64,000 nucleotides of DNA from an uncultured Ectothiorhodospiraceae bacterium (GTDB taxonomy: Bacteria > Pseudomonadota > Gammaproteobacteria > UBA9214), in the NCBI GenBank assembly GCA_947258515.1, contig CAMYIO010000001.1, forward strand, positions 9,373-73,372, written 5' to 3'. The notes beneath the pieces were generated by a model. It ran no database searches and was not told where the DNA came from. It saw nothing but the letters and a program-made list of their open reading frames with translations. Position 1 is the first letter of the stretch. Every line of letters begins with the position of its first letter. The translations under genes and the position numbers were made by a program. Below, in pieces: positions 2,939-42,927 of the stretch.

Positions 2939-3058
2939 CTGCATTCTGCCGACTGATACCCCCCTGCCTGCTCTGTAAGGTAGCGCACTGGACACCCGGA
3001 GACGGGCCCGGGCAAGGACGCCTGCTTTTATTCATCCAACAGACCCATGGAGGGAGCT

Positions 3059-3733
3059 ATGTTTTATACAGGGAAGTCGAGGTTGCGTTTTACACAAGGT
3101 GTTTGTGTCGGTGCTGCGCTGCTGTCAATATCGTCCGCGCAGGCGCAAACGGTTATATCGGAACTGCTTTATGACGCGAGCAGTGCAGATAATGGCAATG
3201 TATTTGTCGAATTGTACGGTACGCCTGGAACGGTACTCGATGGCCTGTTGCTGGAAGGCATCAACGGCACCGACGGCAGTGTTTACCGTAGCGTCATTCT
3301 CGCCGGTGTTATTCCATCGGATGGCGTGTTTCTCATTGGCGATGACACGGGTGACGGCAGCACGTTTATCGGTAATGCCGATCTGGTACGTGAAATCGAT
3401 TTCCAGAACGGACCCGACTCCGTCGTCCTGCGTAATGGCGAAACACTGCTGGATGCACTCGGCTATGGCGATTTTACCGGCCTGCCCTTCAGCGGTGAGG
3501 GCAATGCGGCGCCGGATGCATCGGCCGGCCAGAGCCTGGCGCGCCATCATCCAGGGCTCGACAGCAATGACAATTTCGATGACTTCATGGTGCTGGACTT
3601 GCCGACACCGGGTGCCGTACCGGTGAGTGCGGTACCCGTGCCGCCTGCCATAGCGCTGTTCCTGTCCGGCCTTGTTGGTCTTGCCGGGGTGGCACGCAAG
3701 CGCAAGGAGTCAGCCTGCGGGCACAGGCATTGA
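3059..3733 (+). CDS. Secreted lamin-tail-domain (LTD) protein with C-terminal PEP-CTERM-like sorting signal
   Basis: There is a signal peptide (MFYTGKSRLRFTQGVCVGAALLSISSAQA). The LTD-like core is ISELLYDASSADNGNVFVELYGTPGTVLDGLLLEG. The C-terminus is VPVPPAIALFLSGLVGLAGVARKRK, meaning a Pro-rich motif, a hydrophobic helix and a basic cluster. A GGAGGGAG RBS precedes the ATG at 3059. The track ORF starts at 3047. Confidence 0.6.
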   Translation: MFYTGKSRLRFTQGVCVGAALLSISSAQAQTVISELLYDASSADNGNVFVELYGTPGTVLDGLLLEGINGTDGSVYRSVILAGVIPSDGVFLIGDDTGDGSTFIGNADLVREIDFQNGPDSVVLRNGETLLDALGYGDFTGLPFSGEGNAAPDASAGQSLARHHPGLDSNDNFDDFMVLDLPTPGAVPVSAVPVPPAIALFLSGLVGLAGVARKRKESACGHRH

Positions 3734-4423: not shown

Positions 4424-6960
<2,537 letters not shown>

Positions 6961-18293: not shown

Positions 18294-20933
18294 ATGAAGT
18301 TATCACTTCCCGGTTTTTTACGTCGCGACAAATCAGCAAATGATCAGCCGGTTTCGAAGCCGATGCCGCAGCTTGCGGGTGACATCAAACCCGCGAGCGT
18401 GGGCAAGGTACGCTTCCAGTTACTGCTTGCGGGCGTGGTGTTACTCGGGGTGCTGGCGGCTTTTATTTTCCAGCTGATGTCCGGCCACATATTGCGTGCC
18501 ACGGCGCAGCAATCAAAAATCACCACGCAACAGGTCGCGCTGCGAGTAGCGGCGATGGCAGATTACTATGGCTCAACAGCTGCCTTGCTGGCCAGGGATC
18601 CGGATCTTGCCTATCTGTTAATGGTCGGTAACGAGTCAGCCCTGCAGTCCCGGGAGGAATCCCTGCGCTACGTGTTTCCGAAGGCGATTAATGTCCAGCT
18701 GCTGCCCCCCGGCATTACCGCAGTGGACAAGAATGCCTCGCCACCGTTGCGTCATGCTGCCCTGGCACAGATGCGCGCAGCGGAAGCCGCTGAAGGTGAG
18801 CCACCCATAGAGGTGCACCTGTTCAACACGCCGCAGCAGCATATCAATATCGCTCACCGTGTCGTGGATCCGGCCGGTAGCGTTGTGGTCGGACACTTGA
18901 TGGTGTCCCTGTCGGCCGATGTGTTGCAGAACATCCTGGATGAAATACGGGAGCTGGATGGCTATATCGAAGTGCAACAGGATGGTGGCAAGGGCGCCCC
19001 GGTGGTCATTGCCCGCTTTGGCGAACAGTCGCTAAAGCGGGGTGACGCAGACCGGGTGGTACATATAGAGGGCAGTCGCTGGCAAGTGGCCTATTGGCCG
19101 GCCGTCACTGGCCTGGTGGCGCTGGGTGGCATCAGCATGTGGGTGCTGGGCGCTTTTATAGTGTCTGCCGCTGTCCTGGTGGCTTTGATCATCGTCCTGA
19201 TGGGCAGGATCAACAAGGCATTACGCGTCGATCAGGTCAGCATGGTGACCATTATGAAGGATTGCCGCGATGGCCGACCGCGACGTGTGTATCCTTCGGG
19301 GCTGGCGGAATTGCATGAAAGCATCGAGTTCATGATACAGCTGGCAGCTGGCAGCCAGGCCGGGGAGCAATTCACGCCCGCATCACGCGAACAGGATGCA
19401 TCGGATCATGCTGCAGTCGTTGATTCGGGTGATGACAAGGCTGCTCCTGGCAAGGGGGGTGTCGATGAAGGTGTAGCAGCCGATTTCGGTTCTGCGATAC
19501 GCAGTGACAATCTGATACTCGAGGAGGATACACTGTTCATGGAAGCCGATGATGAAATCGTCGATATCGATCCCTCGATATTCAGGGCGTATGATATTCG
19601 TGGTGTTGTTGACCAGTCACTGACCACAACCGCAGTCAGACTGATCGGACGCGCCATCGGCAGTGAGGCGTTGCAGCGCGGACGTGACACCGTCGTTGTC
19701 GGTCGTGACGGCCGCCTGTCAGGCCCGTCGCTGTCAGAGGCCCTGATTTCCGGAATCATATCAACCGGATGTAATGTGAAGGATATAGGCGTCGTACCGA
19801 CGCCGGTACTGTATTTTGCCACCTACTATCTCGATTCCCAGAGCGGTGTGGTGGTGACGGGCAGCCATAATCCTCCGGACTATAACGGCCTGAAGATAGT
19901 GATTGACGGTGAAACCCTGTCTGGTGAATCGATACAGTCACTGCACGAGCGTATCAAGGCGGGAAAATTCATCTTCGGTGAAGGCAGTGTCGAGGAGATC
20001 AATGTCATTCCGGACTACATCGAAAGAATCCGCGGTGACGTCACCGTTGCGCGGCCGCTAAAAGTGGTCGTCGATTGTGGTAACGGCGTTGCCGGTGGCG
20101 TTATACCCCGGTTACTGAAAGGTCTGGGTTGTGAGGTCACCGAGCTGTTCTGCGAGGTCGATGGGAACTTTCCGAATCATCATCCTGATCCAAGCAAGGC
20201 CGAGAACATGCAGGATCTTATCGCCACTGTCGGGGCAGAACAGGCTGATATCGGCCTGGCATTTGATGGCGACGGTGACCGCCTCGGCGTTGTCACGGCT
20301 GATGGCAGGATTATATGGCCGGACCGGGTGTTGATGCTGTACGCCATAGATATCCTGGCACGCAATCCGGGTGGCCAGATTATCTATGATGTAAAGTGCA
20401 CCCGTTACCTGGATGCGATTATTCGTGAACATGGCGGTGAGCCGCTGATGTGGAAGACAGGACATTCATTTATCAAGGCAAAGATCAGGGAAACCGGTGC
20501 ACTGCTGGCCGGTGAAATGAGTGGCCATATTTTTATCAAGGAGCGCTGGTTCGGGTTTGATGATGCCCTCTATGCGGCTGCCCGCCTGCTTGAGATTCTT
20601 GCCAGGGATGAGCGCAGCAGTACCGAGGTGTTCGCCGCGCTGCCTGACAGTGTGAATACTCCTGAGATCAATGTCACCATGCGGGAGGGAGAGCCGCCCG
20701 TATTCATTGAGCAGTTGCTGGACAGCGCCCACTTCGAGGGTGCGACGGTCTCCACCATCGACGGTCTGCGGGCCGACTTCGAGGATGGTTGGGGGCTGGT
20801 GCGTGCATCGAATACCACACCGGTACTGGTATTGCGATTCGAGGCGGATAATGAGGAAGCGCTGGCGCGCATCATGGGTGATTTTCGACGTGTGATGCTG
20901 CAGGTCAACATGCACCTGTCGTTGCCGTTCTGA
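18294..20933 (+). CDS. algC: Phosphomannomutase/phosphoglucomutase (AlgC-type) with ~420-aa N-terminal membrane extension
   Basis: The C-terminal ~460 aa is the alpha-D-phosphohexomutase domain: the active-site Ser loop TGSHNPPDYNG, the metal loop FDGDGDR, and GEMSGH. The N-terminal part has two hydrophobic segments (aa ~44-62 and ~270-300) that flank a ~200-aa domain. Confidence 0.85.
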   Translation: MKLSLPGFLRRDKSANDQPVSKPMPQLAGDIKPASVGKVRFQLLLAGVVLLGVLAAFIFQLMSGHILRATAQQSKITTQQVALRVAAMADYYGSTAALLARDPDLAYLLMVGNESALQSREESLRYVFPKAINVQLLPPGITAVDKNASPPLRHAALAQMRAAEAAEGEPPIEVHLFNTPQQHINIAHRVVDPAGSVVVGHLMVSLSADVLQNILDEIRELDGYIEVQQDGGKGAPVVIARFGEQSLKRGDADRVVHIEGSRWQVAYWPAVTGLVALGGISMWVLGAFIVSAAVLVALIIVLMGRINKALRVDQVSMVTIMKDCRDGRPRRVYPSGLAELHESIEFMIQLAAGSQAGEQFTPASREQDASDHAAVVDSGDDKAAPGKGGVDEGVAADFGSAIRSDNLILEEDTLFMEADDEIVDIDPSIFRAYDIRGVVDQSLTTTAVRLIGRAIGSEALQRGRDTVVVGRDGRLSGPSLSEALISGIISTGCNVKDIGVVPTPVLYFATYYLDSQSGVVVTGSHNPPDYNGLKIVIDGETLSGESIQSLHERIKAGKFIFGEGSVEEINVIPDYIERIRGDVTVARPLKVVVDCGNGVAGGVIPRLLKGLGCEVTELFCEVDGNFPNHHPDPSKAENMQDLIATVGAEQADIGLAFDGDGDRLGVVTADGRIIWPDRVLMLYAIDILARNPGGQIIYDVKCTRYLDAIIREHGGEPLMWKTGHSFIKAKIRETGALLAGEMSGHIFIKERWFGFDDALYAAARLLEILARDERSSTEVFAALPDSVNTPEINVTMREGEPPVFIEQLLDSAHFEGATVSTIDGLRADFEDGWGLVRASNTTPVLVLRFEADNEEALARIMGDFRRVMLQVNMHLSLPF

Positions 20934-20990: not shown

Positions 20991-22948
<1,958 letters not shown>

Positions 22949-23030
22949 GTGTGACGGCTGTCCCGGTGTCATACCCTGTATTGTATCGGCTGATTTTCCT
23001 ATTATAACGTTTCTGCGCAAATCGGGAGTA

Positions 23031-23789
23031 GTGGTGGACATCCTGGATCAAGTCATCCTGTTTGTCGTGTCCCTGGTAGCCAATCTGTTCTCGGCCTTTT
23101 CAGGTGGCGGCGCCGGACTGATCCAGCTACCAGTCCTGATCTTCATGGGTCTGCCGTTTGCTATAGCACTGGCGACACATAAAGTCGCCAGCGTCGCTCT
23201 GGGTATCGGCGCGACCGTGAGGCACTTGAGGGAGCAGCCACTGGAGCGCCAGTTGACGTTTTATATCCTCGCGTTCGGTCTGCCGGGTGTCATTACCGGG
23301 GCCAATATCATTCTCGATGTACCGGAGCGATCAGCCAGGGTGGCGCTGGGGATCCTGACGGCTGCTCTGGGGATCTATTCCTGGCTGAACCCCGGTCTGG
23401 GGCAGCAGGTGCAAGCGACACACCGGGACCGGCACGGTCATGTCGTTGGTGGCATGGTGTTGTTTGCGATCGGGGTATTGAACGGCTCGTTGACATCAGG
23501 CACCGGGTTGTTCGTAACGCTGTGGCTGGTACGCTGGTTCGGCCTGGATTACCGCCGTGCGATCGCCTACACGCTGATACTGGTCGGGGTATTCTGGAAT
23601 GCGACCGGTGCCGTGACACTGGGGCTGTTAGCCGAAATCCGCTGGTCATGGTTGCCGGCACTGCTGTTAGGATCGCTGCTGGGTGGCTATCTCGGCGCAC
23701 ACCTGGCCATCAAGTCCGGTAATCGCTGGATCAAGCGTGTTTTTGAGGTGGTGACCTTGCTGGTCGGCATCAAGTTGATTTTCGGATAA
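23031..23789 (+). CDS. TSUP (TauE/SafE) family membrane transporter
   Basis: It has an N-terminal GGGAGLIQLP motif and a second half-repeat (GTGLFVTLWLV), with about 8 TM helices. A GTG start at 23031 has a GGGAG RBS. The track ORF extends upstream. Confidence 0.7.
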   Translation: MVDILDQVILFVVSLVANLFSAFSGGGAGLIQLPVLIFMGLPFAIALATHKVASVALGIGATVRHLREQPLERQLTFYILAFGLPGVITGANIILDVPERSARVALGILTAALGIYSWLNPGLGQQVQATHRDRHGHVVGGMVLFAIGVLNGSLTSGTGLFVTLWLVRWFGLDYRRAIAYTLILVGVFWNATGAVTLGLLAEIRWSWLPALLLGSLLGGYLGAHLAIKSGNRWIKRVFEVVTLLVGIKLIFG

Positions 23790-35880: not shown

Positions 35881-36444
35881 TCATGCATGTCCCATATCGC
35901 TGGATAACAGGTTGAGATCGACGCCGAGCAGTGCCGCCGCCGCCATCCAGCGCTCCTCGCTGGGGGTATCAAATACGATATTTGAACTTGCAGGGCCGCT
36001 TAACCAGGTATTGGCTGCGAGTTCCTGTTCCAGCTGGCCTGCTCCCCAGCCGGCATAACCCAGGGTGACTATCGCTTTCTCCGGCCCCTCGCCTGCAGCC
36101 ATCGCCTGGAGAATGTCCCGGGAAGAGGTTATGCCGATTTTGTCCGTGACCTTGAGTGTGGCTTCCCAGTCACCCGCTGGCTCGTGTAACACGAAACCCC
36201 GGTCACTCTGAACCGGTCCACCCATGTAAACGGGCCGCGATGAAATTTCATCACTGCCGGGTTCAATATCCATATACCTCAAAATGTCTATTAACCGCAT
36301 ATTCAGCGGGCGATTGATGACTACCCCCAGTGCGCCGTCCTCATCATGCTCGCAGATGTAGGTGGTGGTGTGGTGAAAATTAGGGTCGTCAAGTGCCGGC
36401 ATGGCAATGAGAAAATGATTGCTTAGTGATTGGCTAATGCTCAT
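35881..36444 (-). CDS. yqgE: YqgE/AlgH-family protein (UPF0301)
   Basis: NHFLIAMPALDDPNFHHTTTYICEHDEDGALGVVINRP is close to enteric YqgE. Confidence 0.85.
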   Translation of the reverse strand: MSISQSLSNHFLIAMPALDDPNFHHTTTYICEHDEDGALGVVINRPLNMRLIDILRYMDIEPGSDEISSRPVYMGGPVQSDRGFVLHEPAGDWEATLKVTDKIGITSSRDILQAMAAGEGPEKAIVTLGYAGWGAGQLEQELAANTWLSGPASSNIVFDTPSEERWMAAAALLGVDLNLLSSDMGHA

Positions 36445-36519
36445 GACAATAGTATCAGGCAGATAGCCGGTCACCTTCAAGCCCCTCCAGGGATATAGTC
36501 AGCCCGTTAGAAAGGCGGA

Positions 36520-37377
36520 TTAGTGGCTTTTCAGCTGGTGGGTCGTGGAGAATTCCCATGTGCGCGTGATGTGCAGGATATCCGCGTCCTTCAGGATTTC
36601 AGACGGAAATGGCGCGAAGGGTGCTGCCAGATTGACGATGCGGATGGCTGCTTCATCAATAACAGCATGCCCGGAAGGGCGCAAAATACTGATATTGCGT
36701 ACTGTTCCATCGGAATTCATGGTGACATCCATTATCAGCTTGCCGGACAGACCTTCGCGGCGCGCATCATCCGGGTAATTCAGATTGCCAACGCGTTCAA
36801 CCTTTTTAACCCATTCACTCATGTAATTGGCGTATTTGAATTCCTGGGTGCGTGCTGATACGTAGATATGCCGGGGTCGCTGTGCATAGGCCTGCATTGA
36901 TTCACTGAGCTGTTCGTTGAGGTTGACCATTTCCATGCTGCGCTCGATCAGGTCGGTGGCCTTGATATCAGGCTTGCTGGTATCAGGAATGACATTTTTC
37001 TTTTGATGGTGCCGGGTTTCAGCCGCATCCGTGGTAATAACCTGGGCGGGTGAGGGCGCGGCCTGTTGTGGCCTGACGGCGGGTGCCTGCTCGGGGATTG
37101 CCTGGGTAGGCCTGACCTTTTCAGTGGTATTGCCACCGCCCTCCTGGCTGGTTTGTGCCAGGTAGTCTGCCTCGTCCGGCGGCGGCGTGCGGCGGTTGGA
37201 GACGGTGATATCCAGTGTTGGCAGGATATTTTCAGGTGCAGGGTCGTCATGCAGGCCGAAAGTGATGCCGAGGATAATCATGGCATGCAGGACGAGTGCA
37301 AAAAACAGTGTCAGGGCCATGCGGTCGACGGCCGTGACGGGAGACGTGTCGAGAATGGGGGCATCTATGTTTTGCAT
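36520..37377 (-). CDS. TonB-family energy transducer (positional equivalent of Pseudomonas tonB3)
   Basis: It has an N-terminal TM helix, a Pro/Gln-rich spacer and a C-terminal TonB domain (SGKLIMDVTMNSDGTVRNISILRPSGHAVIDEAAIR). Confidence 0.75.
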   Translation of the reverse strand: MQNIDAPILDTSPVTAVDRMALTLFFALVLHAMIILGITFGLHDDPAPENILPTLDITVSNRRTPPPDEADYLAQTSQEGGGNTTEKVRPTQAIPEQAPAVRPQQAAPSPAQVITTDAAETRHHQKKNVIPDTSKPDIKATDLIERSMEMVNLNEQLSESMQAYAQRPRHIYVSARTQEFKYANYMSEWVKKVERVGNLNYPDDARREGLSGKLIMDVTMNSDGTVRNISILRPSGHAVIDEAAIRIVNLAAPFAPFPSEILKDADILHITRTWEFSTTHQLKSH

Positions 37378-37919
37378 GGGGCATCTTCACTGCACATTGT
37401 GCGGGCAATTATACCGCTGGCGATACCAAACAATAGTGCTGCGCTTAACAGCACTGGAAACAAATGCCAGATAGCCGCATGCGGAATAAATACCAGCCAG
37501 GCAAGCATGAACTGCCCGCTCATGTGGGCCAGCGCCGCGAGCACGCTATAGCCAATTGCTCCAAAGCCCTTGCCTGGAAGGCGGCAGGCGAACCACAGAA
37601 CTGACACGCTGCATACAGCCCCGCCCATACTGAGTATAAAGGTGGGTGACAGGAAGGTCCCAAGCAACAGACTGCCGCAGACTACGCGAAGCAGGCTTAC
37701 CCAGGCTGCCGAGTGCCAGCCGAACTGCAGCAGGACAGCAATGGTGATGACGTTTGCGAGCCCGGGTTTCAGACCCGGCAGAGGAGATGGAATGGCACTC
37801 TCCAGGATATGTATACAGATGGCCAGGGCAGTGAGCCATGCAATTCGATGGTCTTCAGGTGTTGTCTGTATCTGCATGCAAGCAATGGCATTCCGGGAGT
37901 TTGGTCCTATATTAACCAT
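37365..37919 (-). CDS. Gx-transporter / Hpre_diP_synt_I-like polytopic membrane protein
   Basis: There are about 5 TM helices with small-residue-rich helices. Its ATG overlaps the stop of the upstream DUF4124 gene as TAATG, and its 3' end overlaps tonB by 13 nt. The family call is from memory of the motif pattern. Confidence 0.5.
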   Translation of the reverse strand: MVNIGPNSRNAIACMQIQTTPEDHRIAWLTALAICIHILESAIPSPLPGLKPGLANVITIAVLLQFGWHSAAWVSLLRVVCGSLLLGTFLSPTFILSMGGAVCSVSVLWFACRLPGKGFGAIGYSVLAALAHMSGQFMLAWLVFIPHAAIWHLFPVLLSAALLFGIASGIIARTMCSEDAPCKT

Positions 37920-38320
37920 TACCAGCAGTTGTTTCGCAGATACCTTGCATGTTTTTTGAAGTTTTCATTTCCTCTCGATTTTTTGAACATTTCCCTGTTT
38001 TCGGCACAACGTGAGCGCCTGGCTGCCTGCTGGCGGTTACTGCGGGTTCTTGTCACTTGATCTCGCTGCTGTTGTTGCCGCTGACGCTGTTCCATTTTCT
38101 GCAGTCGGGCGTGTTCACTCTGGCGTAATCCGGATTGGCTGTCCATGCCGGTCATCTTCCGCTGCAGGGTGATTGTCCTGGGCTGGTTGCTTACGGGCGG
38201 CTTGTCACCATAGTGTATCTGCCCCTGCATGTCCGTCCATTGATAGGCGCTGTCTTTGGCGCAGACGCTGCACGGCAGCGTGAAATACAGGATAAATATA
38301 GCGGCCACTTCCAGTTTCAT
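37919..38320 (-). CDS. Secreted DUF4124-like protein with Gln/Arg-rich tail
   Basis: It has a signal peptide (MKLEVAAIFILYFTLPCSVCA), the motif YQWTDMQGQIHYGD, and then RQRQQQQRDQ low-complexity sequence. An AAAGG RBS is present. Confidence 0.55.
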   Translation of the reverse strand: MKLEVAAIFILYFTLPCSVCAKDSAYQWTDMQGQIHYGDKPPVSNQPRTITLQRKMTGMDSQSGLRQSEHARLQKMEQRQRQQQQRDQVTRTRSNRQQAARRSRCAENREMFKKSRGNENFKKHARYLRNNCW

Positions 38321-38615
38321 GGGCAATACCTTTGTAATTGATTTGAATATGAATTCCTGTTGCTTGCAGCTGCGCAAGAAGTTCTCGGGAGTAGCCTACG
38401 TTACCTGTAGTACTGATCACCGGACTATGGGCGGCGGTCGCTGCCATCGGTAGGATTTCTCCCGGATATGCAGTTAAAGCGTGATGGTATGGCGCCGATA
38501 ATTGCATCTATCAGCGGGTTATCAAGGTGCATTGGAAATGGCCGGGGATGTGGGAAGGACAAACACCCTGTTAACCGGCAGGGTGAATGCGTCGTTTCAG
38601 ATCAGGTAAGAAAAT

Positions 38616-39020
38616 ATGCTTCAAATACATGCAGATACAGCACGCCTGGGTGGTCCGTTGCTGGGATTGATGCTCTGGCTAAACCCCTTTGCTGCTGTGC
38701 AGGCTGAAGATGATTACCTCAGTATTCTCGAAGCAGAGGCGCAAGACACGGGTACAAGCAGTATTCCTGCAGTTAATCCAGACAAGACCAGTAAACGTAC
38801 TGACGGGTTCAGGAAGGTAAAGGCCGGAAAACTTATTGAACCAGGGCTGGATTTCGAGGCGTTCGAAGAAGCGCTGAGTATGCGTTACTCCGGCAGTAAT
38901 TCACTGTATTTGAGGTTGTCTGATGGCAAACGCAAAGGTGTCTACAGGTTTTATCAGGGCGATAACCGGATCTCATCTATACGTGAAGAGATTGTGCGTC
39001 TCCTGATATCCGGTTCATGA
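38616..39020 (+). CDS. Small secreted hypothetical protein (mature chain ~100 aa)
   Basis: It has a signal peptide (LLGLMLWLNPFAAVQA). An AGGTAAG RBS is present. It is co-oriented with, and 38 nt upstream of, the rhodanese gene. Confidence 0.5.
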   Translation: MLQIHADTARLGGPLLGLMLWLNPFAAVQAEDDYLSILEAEAQDTGTSSIPAVNPDKTSKRTDGFRKVKAGKLIEPGLDFEAFEEALSMRYSGSNSLYLRLSDGKRKGVYRFYQGDNRISSIREEIVRLLISGS

Positions 39021-39058
39021 CTGTAAATCATTATTTTTTGAAAAAAAGGAAATTTTTT

Positions 39059-39808
39059 ATGAAACAGTTTATCGCTACATCATCCACGCTCGCATTGCTT
39101 GTATCGGCTGTGTTTCTCGTCAATTCAAATGCCATGGCTGTCGAAGTAAAACTAACCGATTATCTTGCTTATATCGATGTTGAACATGATGGTGACCGGG
39201 TACGTGTAGAGCGTATTCAGGACGTGGGACACATGCTGGATGACGGCTTTGCCAAGACATCGCGCAAATGCCCTCCTTTCTGTATCCAGCCCATGAAGGT
39301 GGCACCCGGTGTAACCACGGTTGGCGAGGCTGAAATTTTTCGATTCATGGAGCGTGAACTCGCCTCTGGAAGTGGGCTTATTGTCGATGCACGAACCCCT
39401 GCCTGGTACAAAAAGGGTACTATCCCGGGCTCCATCAACATACCTTTCACCGAATTTGTTGCCGGTGTGGATGCCCCGGAAACGATCAAGGTACTGGAAA
39501 CGCTCGGTGCTGTACGTCGCGATGAAGCAGGCTGGCTGTCACGTAGCATAGAGAAACTGTTGGCCAGGCTCGGCCTGTTTGGTGCGGACCAGAAAACGGA
39601 CAAGTGGGATTTTACGAATGCCAGGAAAGTGGTGTTCTGGTGTAACGGTCCATGGTGTGGTCAGTCACCACGAGCAATCAAGGGGCTGCTTGAGTATGGC
39701 TTTCCACCTGAAAAAATAGCCTATTACCGTGGCGGTATGCAGATGTGGAAAGTGCTGGGTTTGACCGTGGTTGTACCCGACAGTGAGGAAGCTGTTGCTC
39801 TGAAGTAG
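39059..39808 (+). CDS. Periplasmic rhodanese-domain sulfurtransferase with N-terminal CPPFC-containing domain
   Basis: It has a signal peptide (LALLVSAVFLVNSNAMA), a rhodanese fold (LIVDARTPAWYKKGTIPGSINIP) and an active-site loop (VFWCNGPWCGQS). The start is at MKQFIAT after an AAAGGAAA RBS. Confidence 0.7.
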   Translation: MKQFIATSSTLALLVSAVFLVNSNAMAVEVKLTDYLAYIDVEHDGDRVRVERIQDVGHMLDDGFAKTSRKCPPFCIQPMKVAPGVTTVGEAEIFRFMERELASGSGLIVDARTPAWYKKGTIPGSINIPFTEFVAGVDAPETIKVLETLGAVRRDEAGWLSRSIEKLLARLGLFGADQKTDKWDFTNARKVVFWCNGPWCGQSPRAIKGLLEYGFPPEKIAYYRGGMQMWKVLGLTVVVPDSEEAVALK

Positions 39809-39832
39809 AGCTGTCGCCGCTGCTATTATACA

Positions 39833-39859
39833 AAGGGACGCTGGTTGCGTCCCTTTTTT
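39833..39859 (+). terminator. Intrinsic terminator (AAGGGACGC-tggtt-GCGTCCCTT-TTTT)
   Basis: A 9-bp GC stem plus a T-run sits 25 nt after the rhodanese stop. Confidence 0.6.
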
Positions 39860-39897
39860 GGTCCTTGCAGGTGGCCAATGCCATGATGTCAGTCTGG

Positions 39898-40257
39898 CTA
39901 AAAGTTTATTGCATCAAAGCGTGGGTCCTGGCCCACGAGAGCCAGACTGATACGGTTGGGCAAACAGGCGGCAAATTCCCCGGCGCTTGTTAACCAGCCG
40001 CTCTGTACACAGACCTTTGTTGTACACGGTGATCTGACAAACCGTGCACGGCCATTCCTGACTTCGATAATACTCTCACCAAGCGCTCCGGCGACACGCA
40101 GCATCCGGTCCGGTTGCAGTGGTTCAGTTACCGGGGCGCTGCTGCCATTGAGTATTTGTACGAAAGTAGCCGGCCCATTGCCAAACCAGAGATGCAGGTA
40201 CAGAAACGGCATGGCACACACTACCAGGAGTATCAGGATGCGATCGGCACGGGTCAT
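39898..40257 (-). CDS. NusG-domain-II-like (DUF1312-type) single-pass membrane protein
   Basis: It has an N-terminal TM helix (ILILLVVCAMPFLYLHLWF), then a beta domain of about 90 aa. It overlaps the apbE stop by 4 nt. Confidence 0.5.
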   Translation of the reverse strand: MTRADRILILLVVCAMPFLYLHLWFGNGPATFVQILNGSSAPVTEPLQPDRMLRVAGALGESIIEVRNGRARFVRSPCTTKVCVQSGWLTSAGEFAACLPNRISLALVGQDPRFDAINF

Positions 40258-41303
40258 TGTAGAGGGGTACTCAGTCTGATTTCTGCATTTATTCCAGGTT
40301 CAAGGTGGATGCGTGACTGCATTGCCGGATTCATATGGATGATCCCTTGATTGTCTATCAACATGACATAGCTTATGCCCATTTTCAATGCTATAGACAG
40401 CCATTCGTCCGGTCCGGCAACAAATAATGCGGTAGTGGCCGCATCTGCGGTTGCGGCATTACTGTGAATAACGGTGACAGATGTCGTGTTTATTGCCGGG
40501 TAACCTGTGCGCGGGTCGATTATATGATGGTAACGCTTGCCATCCACCTCGAAAAAACGTTCATAGTCTCCCGAGGTAAAGACACTGTTGTCACCGGATA
40601 TTTCGATGCTGGCAATGATGCTGCTTTCCCGCGGGTGACGTATGCCAATGCGCCACGGCCGCTCGCCGTGTTGCCCGATAGCGCGTAAATCACCACCGGC
40701 ATTGACGATAGCATTGTGGATGCCCGATTCGCGCAAGCGGTCTATCGCACGATCGATTGCGTAGCCCTTGGCGAAGCCCCCCAGATCGTAGGCAACTGTC
40801 GGGTTGCGGCTGCTTATGAGTGTGCCATCAATGTGTATATCATTAACGGAAGGGGCCTGAACGAGCAGATCCCTGATTGCAGTGCTGTCGGGTAATGTAC
40901 CGACCGGCAGGGCATTGTCATGAAAGCCCCAGAGCGCAATGAGGTTCCCCAGCACCGGATTGAACAGGCCTTCACTCAGCAGGGACAGCCCGTTCGCCTC
41001 ATCGAGCAATGGCAGGAATGACGGCTCGACCGTGCCAGCTCCGGCTCCGGACAGCTGGCTGTTCAGGGATGAAAGCTGGCCGGGCTGCCACGCATGCCAG
41101 CTGGCGTGCATGTTCACGAAATCCTGTTCTATTTGTTTGCAGACGGATTCGGCTAAAGGTAGCTCAGCGCCGTACAGCGTTATATCTATGAGGGTGCCGA
41201 ATGCAAAGAACTGGTCATGAAATACAGGGTCTTTCTGTGTGCTACATCCGCCGGCACCGAGTATCAGCAGCAGGTAGCCCAGTCGAGTGAGTTGTTCGAT
41301 CAT
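40254..41303 (-). CDS. apbE: FAD:protein FMN transferase ApbE (lipoprotein)
   Basis: It has a lipobox (LLILGAGGC) and ApbE core motifs (AFGTLIDITL, DLGGFAKGYAID, TSGDYERFFEVDGKRYHHIIDPRTG). Confidence 0.85.
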   Translation of the reverse strand: MIEQLTRLGYLLLILGAGGCSTQKDPVFHDQFFAFGTLIDITLYGAELPLAESVCKQIEQDFVNMHASWHAWQPGQLSSLNSQLSGAGAGTVEPSFLPLLDEANGLSLLSEGLFNPVLGNLIALWGFHDNALPVGTLPDSTAIRDLLVQAPSVNDIHIDGTLISSRNPTVAYDLGGFAKGYAIDRAIDRLRESGIHNAIVNAGGDLRAIGQHGERPWRIGIRHPRESSIIASIEISGDNSVFTSGDYERFFEVDGKRYHHIIDPRTGYPAINTTSVTVIHSNAATADAATTALFVAGPDEWLSIALKMGISYVMLIDNQGIIHMNPAMQSRIHLEPGINAEIRLSTPLQ

Positions 41304-42250
41304 TTGCCCAGGCGGTTAGCGACCGTATCCAGAAACCAGCCCGCAATATCCGCGTTATACAACGAGTCGAGTTCGCGTATGCAGGTAGGACTGGTGACAT
41401 TTATTTCGGTCATGTAGTCGCCGATGACATCCAGTCCGACAAACATCAGTCCCTGCTCGCGCAATGCAGGTCCAACCTGCTCGCATATCCAGAGGTCTCT
41501 CTTGCTGAGATCTACCCCTTCGCCGCTACCCCCGGCAGCGAGGTTGCCTCGAGTTTCACCGCGTGCAGGTATCCGCGCCAGTGCATGAGGGAAGGGTTCT
41601 CCGTTAACCATCAGGATGCGCTTGTCACCGGCTGTTATTTCCGGGATATAGCGTTGCGCCATTGCGCTTGTCGCACCGTTCGCGGTGATGGTTTCAAGAA
41701 TGACGTTAAGGTTCGGATCATTTTTCCGGACGCGAAAAACCGATGCGCCGCCCATGCCGTCAAGTGGCTTTACGATTATGTCGTTATGCACGTCAAGGAA
41801 TTCCTTGATTCGCCCCATGTCACGGCTTACTCGTGTTGGCGGACAGCATTGGGAAAACCAGGCGGTATAGAGTTTCTCACTGGCATTCCGTATCGCAGCG
41901 GGACTATTTACGACAAGTGCACCATGTGCCTCGGCTCGTTGCAGCAGGAAGGTTGTATATATGAACTCCATATCTATGGGCGGGTCCTTGCGCATCAGGA
42001 CGACATCAAGCTTATCAAGGGGGGCAGTACGCTTGTCCGACAACGTGTACCAGTCGTTCTCGTCATCCCTGACCTCCACGCGGGTTTGTAAGGCATGGCA
42101 GCGGCTGTCCTCCAGAAACAGGTCTCCCTGCTCCATGTAATACAGTTCCCAGCCGCGTTTCTGGGCCGCCAGCAACATGGCCAGTGAACTGTCCTTGCAA
42201 GGTTTGATTGAACCGATCGGGTCCATGACGATGCCTAGTTTTATGTTCAT
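41300..42250 (-). CDS. gshB: Glutathione synthetase
   Basis: It has the N-terminal MKLGIVMDPI...DSS motif and an ATP-grasp domain. The size is 316 aa. Confidence 0.92.
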   Translation of the reverse strand: MNIKLGIVMDPIGSIKPCKDSSLAMLLAAQKRGWELYYMEQGDLFLEDSRCHALQTRVEVRDDENDWYTLSDKRTAPLDKLDVVLMRKDPPIDMEFIYTTFLLQRAEAHGALVVNSPAAIRNASEKLYTAWFSQCCPPTRVSRDMGRIKEFLDVHNDIIVKPLDGMGGASVFRVRKNDPNLNVILETITANGATSAMAQRYIPEITAGDKRILMVNGEPFPHALARIPARGETRGNLAAGGSGEGVDLSKRDLWICEQVGPALREQGLMFVGLDVIGDYMTEINVTSPTCIRELDSLYNADIAGWFLDTVANRLGK

Positions 42251-42471
42251 AAATTAACTGTTTCCGATATCGGGTGGTGGCTCGCTATCTCTATGACTGG
42301 CCAAGATAAAGTTTGCTACTCGATTGACGATAAACCGGTGTAGCAGAAAGCCAATACTAAATTAATTCTCCTGCCGGGGTATGGATAGTGACACGGGTGT
42401 CCGGGCAGAGGCTCCGCGGGAGATTGAGTGATTGGCTTAAGTTCAAAAAAATCAAATGGATAGAGGTCATC

Positions 42472-42927
42472 ATGCAGAGTACTTTACCGACAGCCGAAGT
42501 GAATGAATCCGTCAGTGACGGTGATGCGCTGGTCGCCGATGGGGTGGCTGGGAGGCGTGTCAAGGTCATGGTGATCGATGACAGTAAAACGATTCGCCGT
42601 ACTGCGGAGACGCTTCTGAAGAAAGAAGGATTTGATGTGATCGCGGCAACCGACGGATTCGAAGCCCTCAGCATGATTGCCGATCATCAACCCGATCTCA
42701 TCCTGCTGGATATCATGATGCCACGTCTGGACGGTTATCAGACGTGTGCATTGATCAAGCATCACCGGGTTTTCCGCCATACACCCGTCATCATGCTCTC
42801 CAGCAAGGATGGCTTGTTCGACCGGGCCAGGGGGCGAGTGGTTGGTTCAGATAACTACATAACCAAGCCATTTACCCGCGAAGAATTACTCAAAGTAATC
42901 GAACAGCATACTGAAAACACTGACTAG
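42472..42927 (+). CDS. pilG: CheY-like response regulator PilG
   Basis: It has the receiver-domain residues DD...D(LILLDIMMP)...K. It is the first gene of the Chp cluster, divergent from gshB. A GAGG RBS is present. Confidence 0.88.
   Translation: MQSTLPTAEVNESVSDGDALVADGVAGRRVKVMVIDDSKTIRRTAETLLKKEGFDVIAATDGFEALSMIADHQPDLILLDIMMPRLDGYQTCALIKHHRVFRHTPVIMLSSKDGLFDRARGRVVGSDNYITKPFTREELLKVIEQHTENTD

Follow-up and report, generated by a model that had tools for sequence, protein, structure and literature searches.

The apbE, eetA and eetB genes between gshB and tonB3 in an uncultured Ectothiorhodospiraceae bacterium probably represent a proteobacterial copy of a published flavin-trafficking module

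Overview and main finding

A 64-kb stretch of contig CAMYIO010000001.1 from an uncultured Ectothiorhodospiraceae bacterium was analyzed (hereafter the window; all coordinates are window positions). Between a glutathione synthetase gene (gshB) and a tonB3-like gene, it carries three genes predicted to encode a flavin adenine dinucleotide (FAD):protein flavin mononucleotide (FMN) transferase (ApbE), a NusG_II protein and a Hpre_diP_synt_I protein. An earlier note on this DNA had proposed that these genes and their neighbors form an undescribed extracytoplasmic flavinylation/redox system. Our analysis suggests that the triad is a proteobacterial copy of the published ApbE(FmnB)–EetA–EetB flavin-trafficking module and that no undescribed system is present, an explanation to which, as a whole, we assign a probability of about 0.78. 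This reading is based on the presence of the same three families and on the identical layout listed for Alkalilimnicola ehrlichii in Data Set S1 of Rivera-Lugo et al. (2023; mBio; PMC9973259). The NusG_II and Hpre_diP_synt_I proteins are accordingly referred to as EetA and EetB.

In Listeria, EetB is needed for the flavinylation of PplA by the ApbE-type protein FmnB (Rivera-Lugo et al., 2023). Listeria EetB, expressed in E. coli, binds FAD; it has a fold similar to the S-subunits of energy-coupling factor (ECF) transporters, exports FAD together with the ECF-T paralog FmnA and the EcfA/A' ATPases, and cannot substitute for RibU in flavin uptake (Rivera-Lugo et al., 2023). The statement that no substrate had been defined for this gene combination is therefore outdated with regard to the transporter-like protein. 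The same study defined eetB homologs by Pfam PF07456, which is Hpre_diP_synt_I, and labeled PF07009 (NusG_II) as EetA in Data Set S1. Homologs of eetB were found in 4,214 of the 31,910 genomes surveyed, adjoining eetA in 3,328 and apbE in 2,169 of the 4,214, and Rnf was the most common partner (Rivera-Lugo et al., 2023).

For A. ehrlichii (NC_008340, 389845-397750), Data Set S1 lists pilI-pilH-pilG beside gshB–ApbE(fmnB)–EetA–EetB–TonB_C–DUF179–RuvX–PyrR–PyrB (Rivera-Lugo et al., 2023). Apart from the extra genes of the window the gene order is identical, and the junctions overlap alike. Alkalilimnicola lacks the additional ~2 kb, with genes for a secreted protein, a rhodanese and a DUF4124 protein, that separates eetA from eetB in the window. 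The paper gives the Alkalilimnicola locus in the supplementary table alone, without discussion in its text (Rivera-Lugo et al., 2023).

Features of ApbE, EetA and EetB

All Pfam matches discussed here (ApbE, NusG_II, Hpre_diP_synt_I, DUF4124, Rhodanese and TonB_C) exceed the curated cut-offs, so the three assignments on which the proposed system was built hold in profile searches. Residues 35-307 of ApbE align to positions 1-257 of the 266-position PF02424 profile. Its relatives in the PDB, aligned over most of the length, include TM1553 (7.6e-43) and Vibrio cholerae ApbE 6nxi (3.4e-36). The catalytic His (H257 in V. cholerae) is conserved, with RYHHIIDP in the window, RYSHIIDP in 6nxi and RYSGIIDP in the mutant 6nxj. 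The family motifs DxGGxAKG, SGDYER, HHxxDPxTG and TADA were tested, and the flavin/Mg-binding motifs are kept as DLGGFAKGY, TSGDYERF and ATADAATTA. With these family features, the window ApbE is a putative FMN transferase acting on a Ser/Thr acceptor. The N-terminus, MIEQLTRLGYLLLILGAGGC-STQ, contains a hydrophobic core followed by Cys20 (…LGAGGC20), as judged by inspection and not by a signal-peptide predictor, and ApbE is predicted to be an extracytoplasmic lipoprotein. The Alkalilimnicola ortholog was scored LIPO(Sec/SPII) in Data Set S1 (Rivera-Lugo et al., 2023).

The EetA family profile matches PDB entries 4esn (8e-15), Lin0431 (7e-11) and Aquifex NusG (1.9e-5). The AlphaFold model of EetA has a mean predicted local distance difference test (pLDDT) score of 91.4 and consists of a helix at residues 3-24 followed by a beta domain. 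In Foldseek comparisons the model matches 4esn with a template modeling score (TM-score) of 0.87-0.89 and a root-mean-square deviation of 1.4-1.5 Å, and it also matches 4obi, 3ld7 and Aquifex NusG domain II (E-values 1.7e-5 to 4e-4). EetA is thus modeled as a single-pass protein with an N-terminal transmembrane helix and a periplasmic NusG-domain-II/DUF1312 beta domain. Three cysteines, C78, C83 and C98 (SPCxxKxC…AACLPN), reach a conservation of 90% or more across 110 diverse relatives and could form a disulfide or metal site in the periplasmic domain. This triad of the proteobacterial proteins is also present in 4esn from R. gnavus, whereas the Listeria innocua paralog Lin0431 lacks the first two cysteines.

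The PF07456 match of EetB spans positions 1-146 of the 147-position profile. The AlphaFold model of EetB, computed from alignment A3, has a pLDDT of 85.7 and contains six helices. The top nine Foldseek matches in the PDB are all ECF S-components, including RibU, ThiT and PanT. Staphylococcus aureus RibU 3p5n ranks first by E-value and Thermotoga maritima RibU 5kc0 gives the best TM-score (0.70-0.71); the E-values are weak (4e-3 and above), at a reported probability of 1.00. The model points to a six-helix membrane protein with an ECF S-subunit-like fold. Helix 1 contains an AxxxA motif (A13, A17) with a conservation of at least 90% across 86 sequences. Motifs of this type are characteristic of S-components that dock onto ECF-T. 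EetB keeps this docking-type motif although no ECF-T gene was found nearby. A19 and LFIPH were also noted in EetB, and the PSPLPGxKPGLAN loop after helix 1 is nearly invariant. The labels "heptaprenyl diphosphate synthase component I" and "NusG domain II" carried by these genomes should be replaced by EetB and EetA, which name the partners of ApbE in flavin trafficking.

In the mechanism that we propose, EetB would bind cytoplasmic FAD and move, present or release it at the periplasmic face. EetA would assist EetB, possibly by helping with the handover of the cofactor. The lipoprotein ApbE would then use this FAD and transfer FMN covalently to a Ser/Thr of extracytoplasmic or membrane redox proteins. 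We infer that the proteobacterial proteins do the same job as their Listeria counterparts, and we likewise deduce which way FAD is carried, what EetA does, which proteins accept the flavin and what powers the transport; FAD binding by EetB and its requirement for flavinylation would carry over from Listeria by analogy.

Gene context of eetB in related genomes

A census of eetB loci, with one genome per species, was anchored on the EetB alignment A3 and returned 80 loci, a sample biased towards relatives of the window. Anchoring on EetA failed, as neither alignment A1 (110 sequences) nor alignment A2 (19 sequences) contained a stretch conserved enough for a DNA-pattern scan. The loci were annotated by phmmer with the window proteins as queries. 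They belong to uncultured Gammaproteobacteria (labeled Thiohalophilus, Chromatiaceae, Ectothiorhodospiraceae, Thioploca/Thiomargarita and others) and to Gallionellaceae.

Among the 67 loci with enough upstream sequence to be assessed, eetA lies at most 700 nt upstream of eetB in 54, and the junction is interrupted by an insertion in three more (2.0 kb in L007, 1.2 kb in L042 and 6.9 kb in L069). Contiguous apbE–eetA–eetB, with apbE directly upstream of eetA, was found in 41 of the 67. The tonB gene directly follows eetB in 55 of 75 assessable loci, and two loci (L005 and L006) show gshB–apbE–eetA–eetB–tonB without interruption. Neighborhoods of eetB in the giant sulfur bacteria (L051 and L058) are scrambled and uninformative. 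The gene arrangement is not due to chance, since it recurs in dozens of species-level genomes, and gshB–apbE–eetA–eetB–tonB3–yqgE–ruvX–pyrR–pyrB is a common, old arrangement in sulfur-oxidizing Gammaproteobacteria. The description of the genes as inserted between gshB and yqgE is thus valid relative to Pseudomonas but not within these sulfur oxidizers. The co-occurrence of the three families and their link to extracytoplasmic flavinylation, both stated in the earlier note, hold. The core of the cassette recurs, while the exact cassette with the rhodanese pair is restricted to the closest relatives.

We weighed whether the triad reflects inherited synteny only, with gshB–apbE–eetA and eetB–tonB–yqgE… being unrelated transcription units that happen to abut. 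The repeated occurrence of insertions between eetA and eetB (~2 kb in the window and in L007, and those of L042 and L069) fits this view, as does the retention of eetB–tonB without upstream apbE–eetA in five loci (L009, L013, L024, L027 and L032). Against it, the eetA–eetB pair occurs in an entirely different context in Betaproteobacteria and recurs across phyla, including EetA–EetB fusions in 14 genomes (Rivera-Lugo et al., 2023). The five genes from gshB to tonB in Alkalilimnicola overlap or nearly abut, and the genes from both sides of the insertion are absent together in the loci L087-L090 described below. We therefore regard mere synteny as highly improbable.

Every junction from gshB to tonB in Alkalilimnicola (NC_008340, 392368-396152) overlaps or (nearly) abuts. 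For the coupling of gshB and tonB3 to the flavin genes we offer no explanation beyond shared housekeeping expression. In L087-L090 the same tonB gene follows DUF4124 without eetB, and tonB3 is probably conserved syntenic context and not a functional part of the flavin module. A more speculative idea is that a functional link underlies the conserved translational coupling of eetB with tonB3 and, in Betaproteobacteria, with ubiX.

The rhodanese/DUF4124 insertion and joint absence of the flavin genes

In the window, ~2 kb with the gene for a 134-aa secreted protein, a rhodanese gene (both on the opposite strand) and a DUF4124 gene lies between eetA and eetB. Among the 80 species genomes the secreted-protein/rhodanese pair was found only in L007 and L008, and it is also present in the near-identical metagenome contigs L001-L004. 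The 134-aa protein, which has no Pfam or NCBIfam match, accompanies the rhodanese gene in L001-L004, L007, L008 and L087-L090. The DUF4124 gene is uncalled or absent in loci with contiguous apbE–eetA–eetB.

In L087-L090, whose TonB proteins share ~72-76% identity with that of the window, the order is gshB–(patatin or XkdW-like gene)–rhodanese pair–tonB. Profile searches detected neither eetA nor eetB in these four loci. In L087 and L088, a DUF4124 homolog lies directly upstream of tonB, again without eetB. Immediately after gshB, L087 (7983-8111) and L088 (7982-8110) encode a 44-residue ApbE fragment that corresponds to window residues 178-221 (48% identity). This fragment looks like a decayed apbE, which suggests that the flavin genes were lost as a set. 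In the window the three genes lie on both sides of the insertion, yet all of them are missing from L087-L090, apart from the apbE remnant of L087 and L088; this joint absence argues that apbE, eetA and eetB depend on one another.

Together, the rhodanese pair and the DUF4124 gene make up a unit that does not depend on the flavin genes, since they occur without eetA and eetB in L087-L090 and are missing from most module loci. They are thus not parts of the module, as had been supposed, but a separate, secondary, lineage-specific insertion, and DUF4124 is not a partner of eetB. As the insertion separates the two eet genes, eetB must by now share its transcript with DUF4124 and tonB and no longer with apbE and eetA. 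No terminal repeats and no mobile-element signature were detected at the insertion borders, only trivial repeats. The G+C content falls to 0.44-0.49 over 38500-39500, which is compatible with a foreign origin but not decisive.

The near-identical metagenome contig L003 carries a DDE transposase fragment (5467-5931) between eetA and the rhodanese gene, suggesting that the eetA/eetB junction tolerates insertions. The rhodanese pair fills the gshB–tonB interval in several lineages, with the flavin genes present or not. The periplasmic rhodanese-like protein contains the loop CNGPWCGQSPR and has a weak NCBIfam match to the PQQ-associated CXXCW rhodanese subfamily.

Flavin acceptors, ECF partners and alternative functions

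Several observations weigh against assigning the window genes to the published module. The first is that eetB occurs without neighboring apbE: ten loci lack both eetA and apbE in the vicinity of eetB, and 15 Gallionellaceae-type genomes have hprK–rapZ–eetA–eetB–ubiX with no apbE nearby, so EetAB is not strictly tied to apbE. Second, no acceptor was found in the window. Third, no ABC (ATP-binding cassette) ATPase-like open reading frame (ORF) occurs within ±8 kb of eetB in the gammaproteobacterial loci, as scanned for Walker A and signature motifs, and no ECF-T gene was found nearby. Fourth, the role of EetA is undefined, as Listeria ΔeetA has no extracellular electron transfer (EET) phenotype (Rivera-Lugo et al., 2023). 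Finally, the window proteins are family-level relatives of the Listeria proteins, likened to them by family and not by direct alignment.

The loci without apbE raise the question of whether EetA–EetB is a general transporter of flavin or another cofactor that is not dedicated to ApbE and serves, for example, uptake or cytoplasmic flavin enzymes. Besides these loci and the rapZ–eetA–eetB–ubiX arrangement of Azonexus in the published table (Rivera-Lugo et al., 2023), the closest structural match of EetB, the riboflavin importer subunit RibU, would suit such a role. The gene order speaks for a dedicated partnership, since apbE is directly upstream of eetA in 41 of 67 loci and adjoins eetB in 2,169 of the 4,214 published genomes, and the three genes are jointly absent in L087-L090, with the apbE remnant in two. 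Moreover, Listeria EetB does not replace RibU in uptake (Rivera-Lugo et al., 2023), and the ubiX context is still flavin-related and may be a matter of housekeeping operon placement only. A general transporter is therefore unlikely, and a module that supplies ApbE remains the preferred reading.

In L083 (7556-9121), as well as in L064 and L070-L086, the order is rpoN–hpf–ptsN–hprK–rapZ–eetA–eetB–ubiX. In Gallionellaceae, eetB overlaps the gene for a 199-aa UbiX-like flavin prenyltransferase (PF02441) by 4 nt, and no apbE was found within 8 kb. The only ABC-ATPase-like ORFs in the census are in betaproteobacterial loci, just upstream of rpoN. From their position, we take them to encode LptB. 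The ubiX gene represents a second flavin-related context of eetB.

No [S/T]GA[S/T] flavinylation motif was found in any neighboring gene by a six-frame scan, in agreement with the earlier note, and SGA[ST] strings occur in the window only in unrelated genes or non-coding frames. Pfam scans of ~45 ORFs over the 64 kb revealed no FMN_bind, RnfG/RnfD, NqrB/NqrC, NosR-type or DUF2271 gene. The ten flavinylation-associated systems described by Méheust et al. (2021) are gene clusters with their own acceptor, recognized by an FMN_bind, NqrB/RnfD, DUF2271 or similar domain or by the motif in a neighboring secreted or membrane protein, and neither was found here among the scanned ORFs and the neighboring proteins; the supplements of that study have no entry for Alkalilimnicola or related families. 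Since there is no acceptor in the 64-kb window and Rnf is the most common eetB partner in the published survey (Rivera-Lugo et al., 2023), the most likely acceptors are RnfG/RnfD, NqrB/NqrC or NosR-type proteins whose genes lie in another part of the genome. ApbE most likely serves Nqr or Rnf in this way, an outcome that the earlier note itself had named as speaking against a new system.

A self-contained, undescribed flavinylation/redox system would instead have a local acceptor, which might be EetA, DUF4124, the 134-aa protein or the rhodanese. The tight coupling of apbE to eetA, the several secreted proteins without assigned function in the interval and the lack of a classical acceptor nearby can all be read this way. 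We nevertheless consider it improbable in the extreme, for the motif is absent from all local proteins, most module loci lack the rhodanese pair and DUF4124, these genes persist without eetA and eetB (with apbE absent or reduced to a remnant), and EetA and EetB have already been published as FAD-trafficking partners (Rivera-Lugo et al., 2023). The claim of an undescribed system thus gives way to the published ApbE–EetA–EetB module, whose layout is the same in Alkalilimnicola.

What chiefly sets these loci apart from the Listeria mechanism is the lack of ECF-T and ATPase genes close to eetB. No ECF-T gene appeared in Pfam scans that covered the window and L083 fully and L009, L051 and L058 partly, with no dedicated ECF-T profile search, nor in the precomputed Pfam tables for L001-L006. 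Co-localization with ECF-T and ECF-A defines the Listeria mechanism and not the family, since it was found in only 291 and 796, respectively, of the 4,214 genomes with eetB (Rivera-Lugo et al., 2023). The energizing mechanism may thus differ from that in Listeria. One tentative possibility, which we rate well below an even chance, is that proteobacterial EetA–EetB acts as a stand-alone FAD exporter without an ECF module, formed by a solitary S-component and a single-pass partner. If true, such an exporter would supply periplasmic ApbE in many Gram-negative lineages whose FAD route is undefined, and EetAB working without an ECF module would bear on how Gram-negative bacteria provide periplasmic FAD for Rnf/Nqr maturation.

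Overall, the result is the annotation of a published module that is widespread in sulfur- and iron-oxidizing Gamma- and Betaproteobacteria. Its residual value lies in the proteobacterial context: the genes are placed in housekeeping operons (gshB–…–tonB3–pyr and rapZ–…–ubiX), have no ECF-T or ATPase gene nearby, and can be absent as a set. The main text of the EetB paper (Rivera-Lugo et al., 2023) takes up neither the lack of nearby ECF-T/ATPase genes nor the tonB3 and ubiX contexts.

Gene calls and the remainder of the window

The ORFs and layout given in the earlier note were reproduced, and all of its gene calls were confirmed (Table 1). The junction sequences show the 4-nt ATGA overlap between apbE and eetA that had been noted, and a further ATGA overlap (4 nt) between gshB and apbE that had been missed; the latter is the same in L001, L005 and Alkalilimnicola. 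The 13-nt overlap of eetB and tonB also stands and recurs in relatives in the calls of an independent gene finder. Among the matches listed, most of the 120 EetB homologs are 170 aa long, which fits the ATG at 37877, 42 nt downstream of the first ATG at 37919. The eetB start is probably the downstream ATG, as judged from homolog lengths. A TAATG coupling of DUF4124 and eetB, as had been described, is doubtful, because it needs the ATG at 37919 whereas the homologs start at 37877. The start of DUF4124 is most likely the ATG at 38320 (MKLEVAAIF..., a signal peptide) and not the TTG at 38377. The rhodanese gene probably starts at 39059, since its homologs are 249 aa long. A scan of 36300-42500 for promoters and terminators gave no matches above shuffled expectation.

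Table 1. Genes of the gshB–tonB interval in the window, with called and revised starts.
Feature	Position	Strand	Remarks
gshB	41300-42250	-	Glutathione synthetase, NCBIfam NF003573 (3.2e-134); first gene of the string, context only
apbE	40254-41303	-	fmnB-type FAD:protein FMN transferase, Pfam PF02424 (6.8e-77)
eetA	39898-40257	-	NusG_II protein, 119 aa, Pfam PF07009 (1.6e-17)
Rhodanese ORF	39017-39808	+	Pfam PF00581 (2.6e-11); convergent with eetA
Rhodanese, homolog-supported start (probable)	39059-39808	+	249 aa, like its homologs; secreted
134-aa secreted protein	38616-39020	+	Upstream partner of the rhodanese gene
DUF4124 ORF as called	37919-38377	-	Pfam PF13511 (4.6e-7)
DUF4124, revised start (most likely)	37919-38320	-	133 aa; secreted
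eetB ORF as called	37365-37919	-	Hpre_diP_synt_I ("Gx transporter"), 184 aa, Pfam PF07456 (7.4e-40)
eetB, revised start (probable)	37365-37877	-	170 aa
tonB3-like gene	36520-37377	-	TonB_C (3.7e-15)

In the window, tonB is followed by yqgE, ruvX, pyrR and pyrB, and pilGHIJ is divergent from gshB. The rest of the window contains housekeeping genes, including those for M16 peptidases, coaD, ggt, fpg, an ABC-2 system, dfp, dut, a PGM/PMM-family gene, argB, pilT/pilU, pyr genes, the pilG–chpA cluster, metF, ahcY, metK, tkt, gap, pgk and pyk. The PGM/PMM ORF (18294-20933, + strand) encodes 879 aa, but its Pfam domains begin at residue 429 and the N-terminal 428 aa have no Pfam match; it is probably an over-extended call and possibly a fusion. 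At 21923-23041 (- strand), the window encodes another protein with DUF4124, which is larger (372 aa). An ORF of 228 aa at 3047-3733 (+ strand) matches the Lamin Tail Domain and, at its C-terminus, a PEP-CTERM sorting motif, in both cases only weakly and below threshold.

Comparison with known flavin-supply systems

The EET module of Listeria combines the same three families as the window (PF02424, PF07009 and PF07456). The trafficking of flavins by this locus is reportedly also to be credited to Light et al. (2018). In both cases ApbE is a lipoprotein, EetB is an ECF-S-like six-helix protein, and EetA is a single-pass protein with an extracytosolic DUF1312 domain, the window proteins being so by prediction. 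Unlike in Listeria, no genes for ECF-T (FmnA), EcfA/A', the PplA acceptor, Ndh2 or demethylmenaquinone (DMK) synthesis are near the window cluster. The host is Gram-negative, so that delivery would be into the periplasm, and the genes form part of a gshB–tonB3–pyr string of housekeeping genes.

Clostridial Rnf clusters with eetB (572 genomes; Rivera-Lugo et al., 2023) and NapH-/MsrQ-like clusters also contain eetB and apbE as their cofactor-supply part. These clusters encode the acceptor complex alongside (RnfG/RnfD and others), whereas none is present in the 64 kb of the window.

In Vibrio, apbE belongs to the nqrABCDEF–apbE–nqrM operon. There, apbE is followed by the gene for a small, single-pass, Cys-containing membrane protein, a maturation accessory, as is positionally the case here. 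An NqrM-like role for EetA was considered on this analogy and set aside: NqrM (DUF539) and EetA (NusG_II) belong to different families and the window has no nqr genes, so the resemblance is positional only.

The MATE-type FAD exporters Bfe of Shewanella and YeeO of E. coli are members of an unrelated family with 12 transmembrane helices and are not characteristically linked to apbE (Rivera-Lugo et al., 2023). Bfe was cited in that study as the previously known Gram-negative flavin exporter, and the role proposed here for EetA–EetB is the same, namely the movement of FAD from the cytoplasm to the periplasm.

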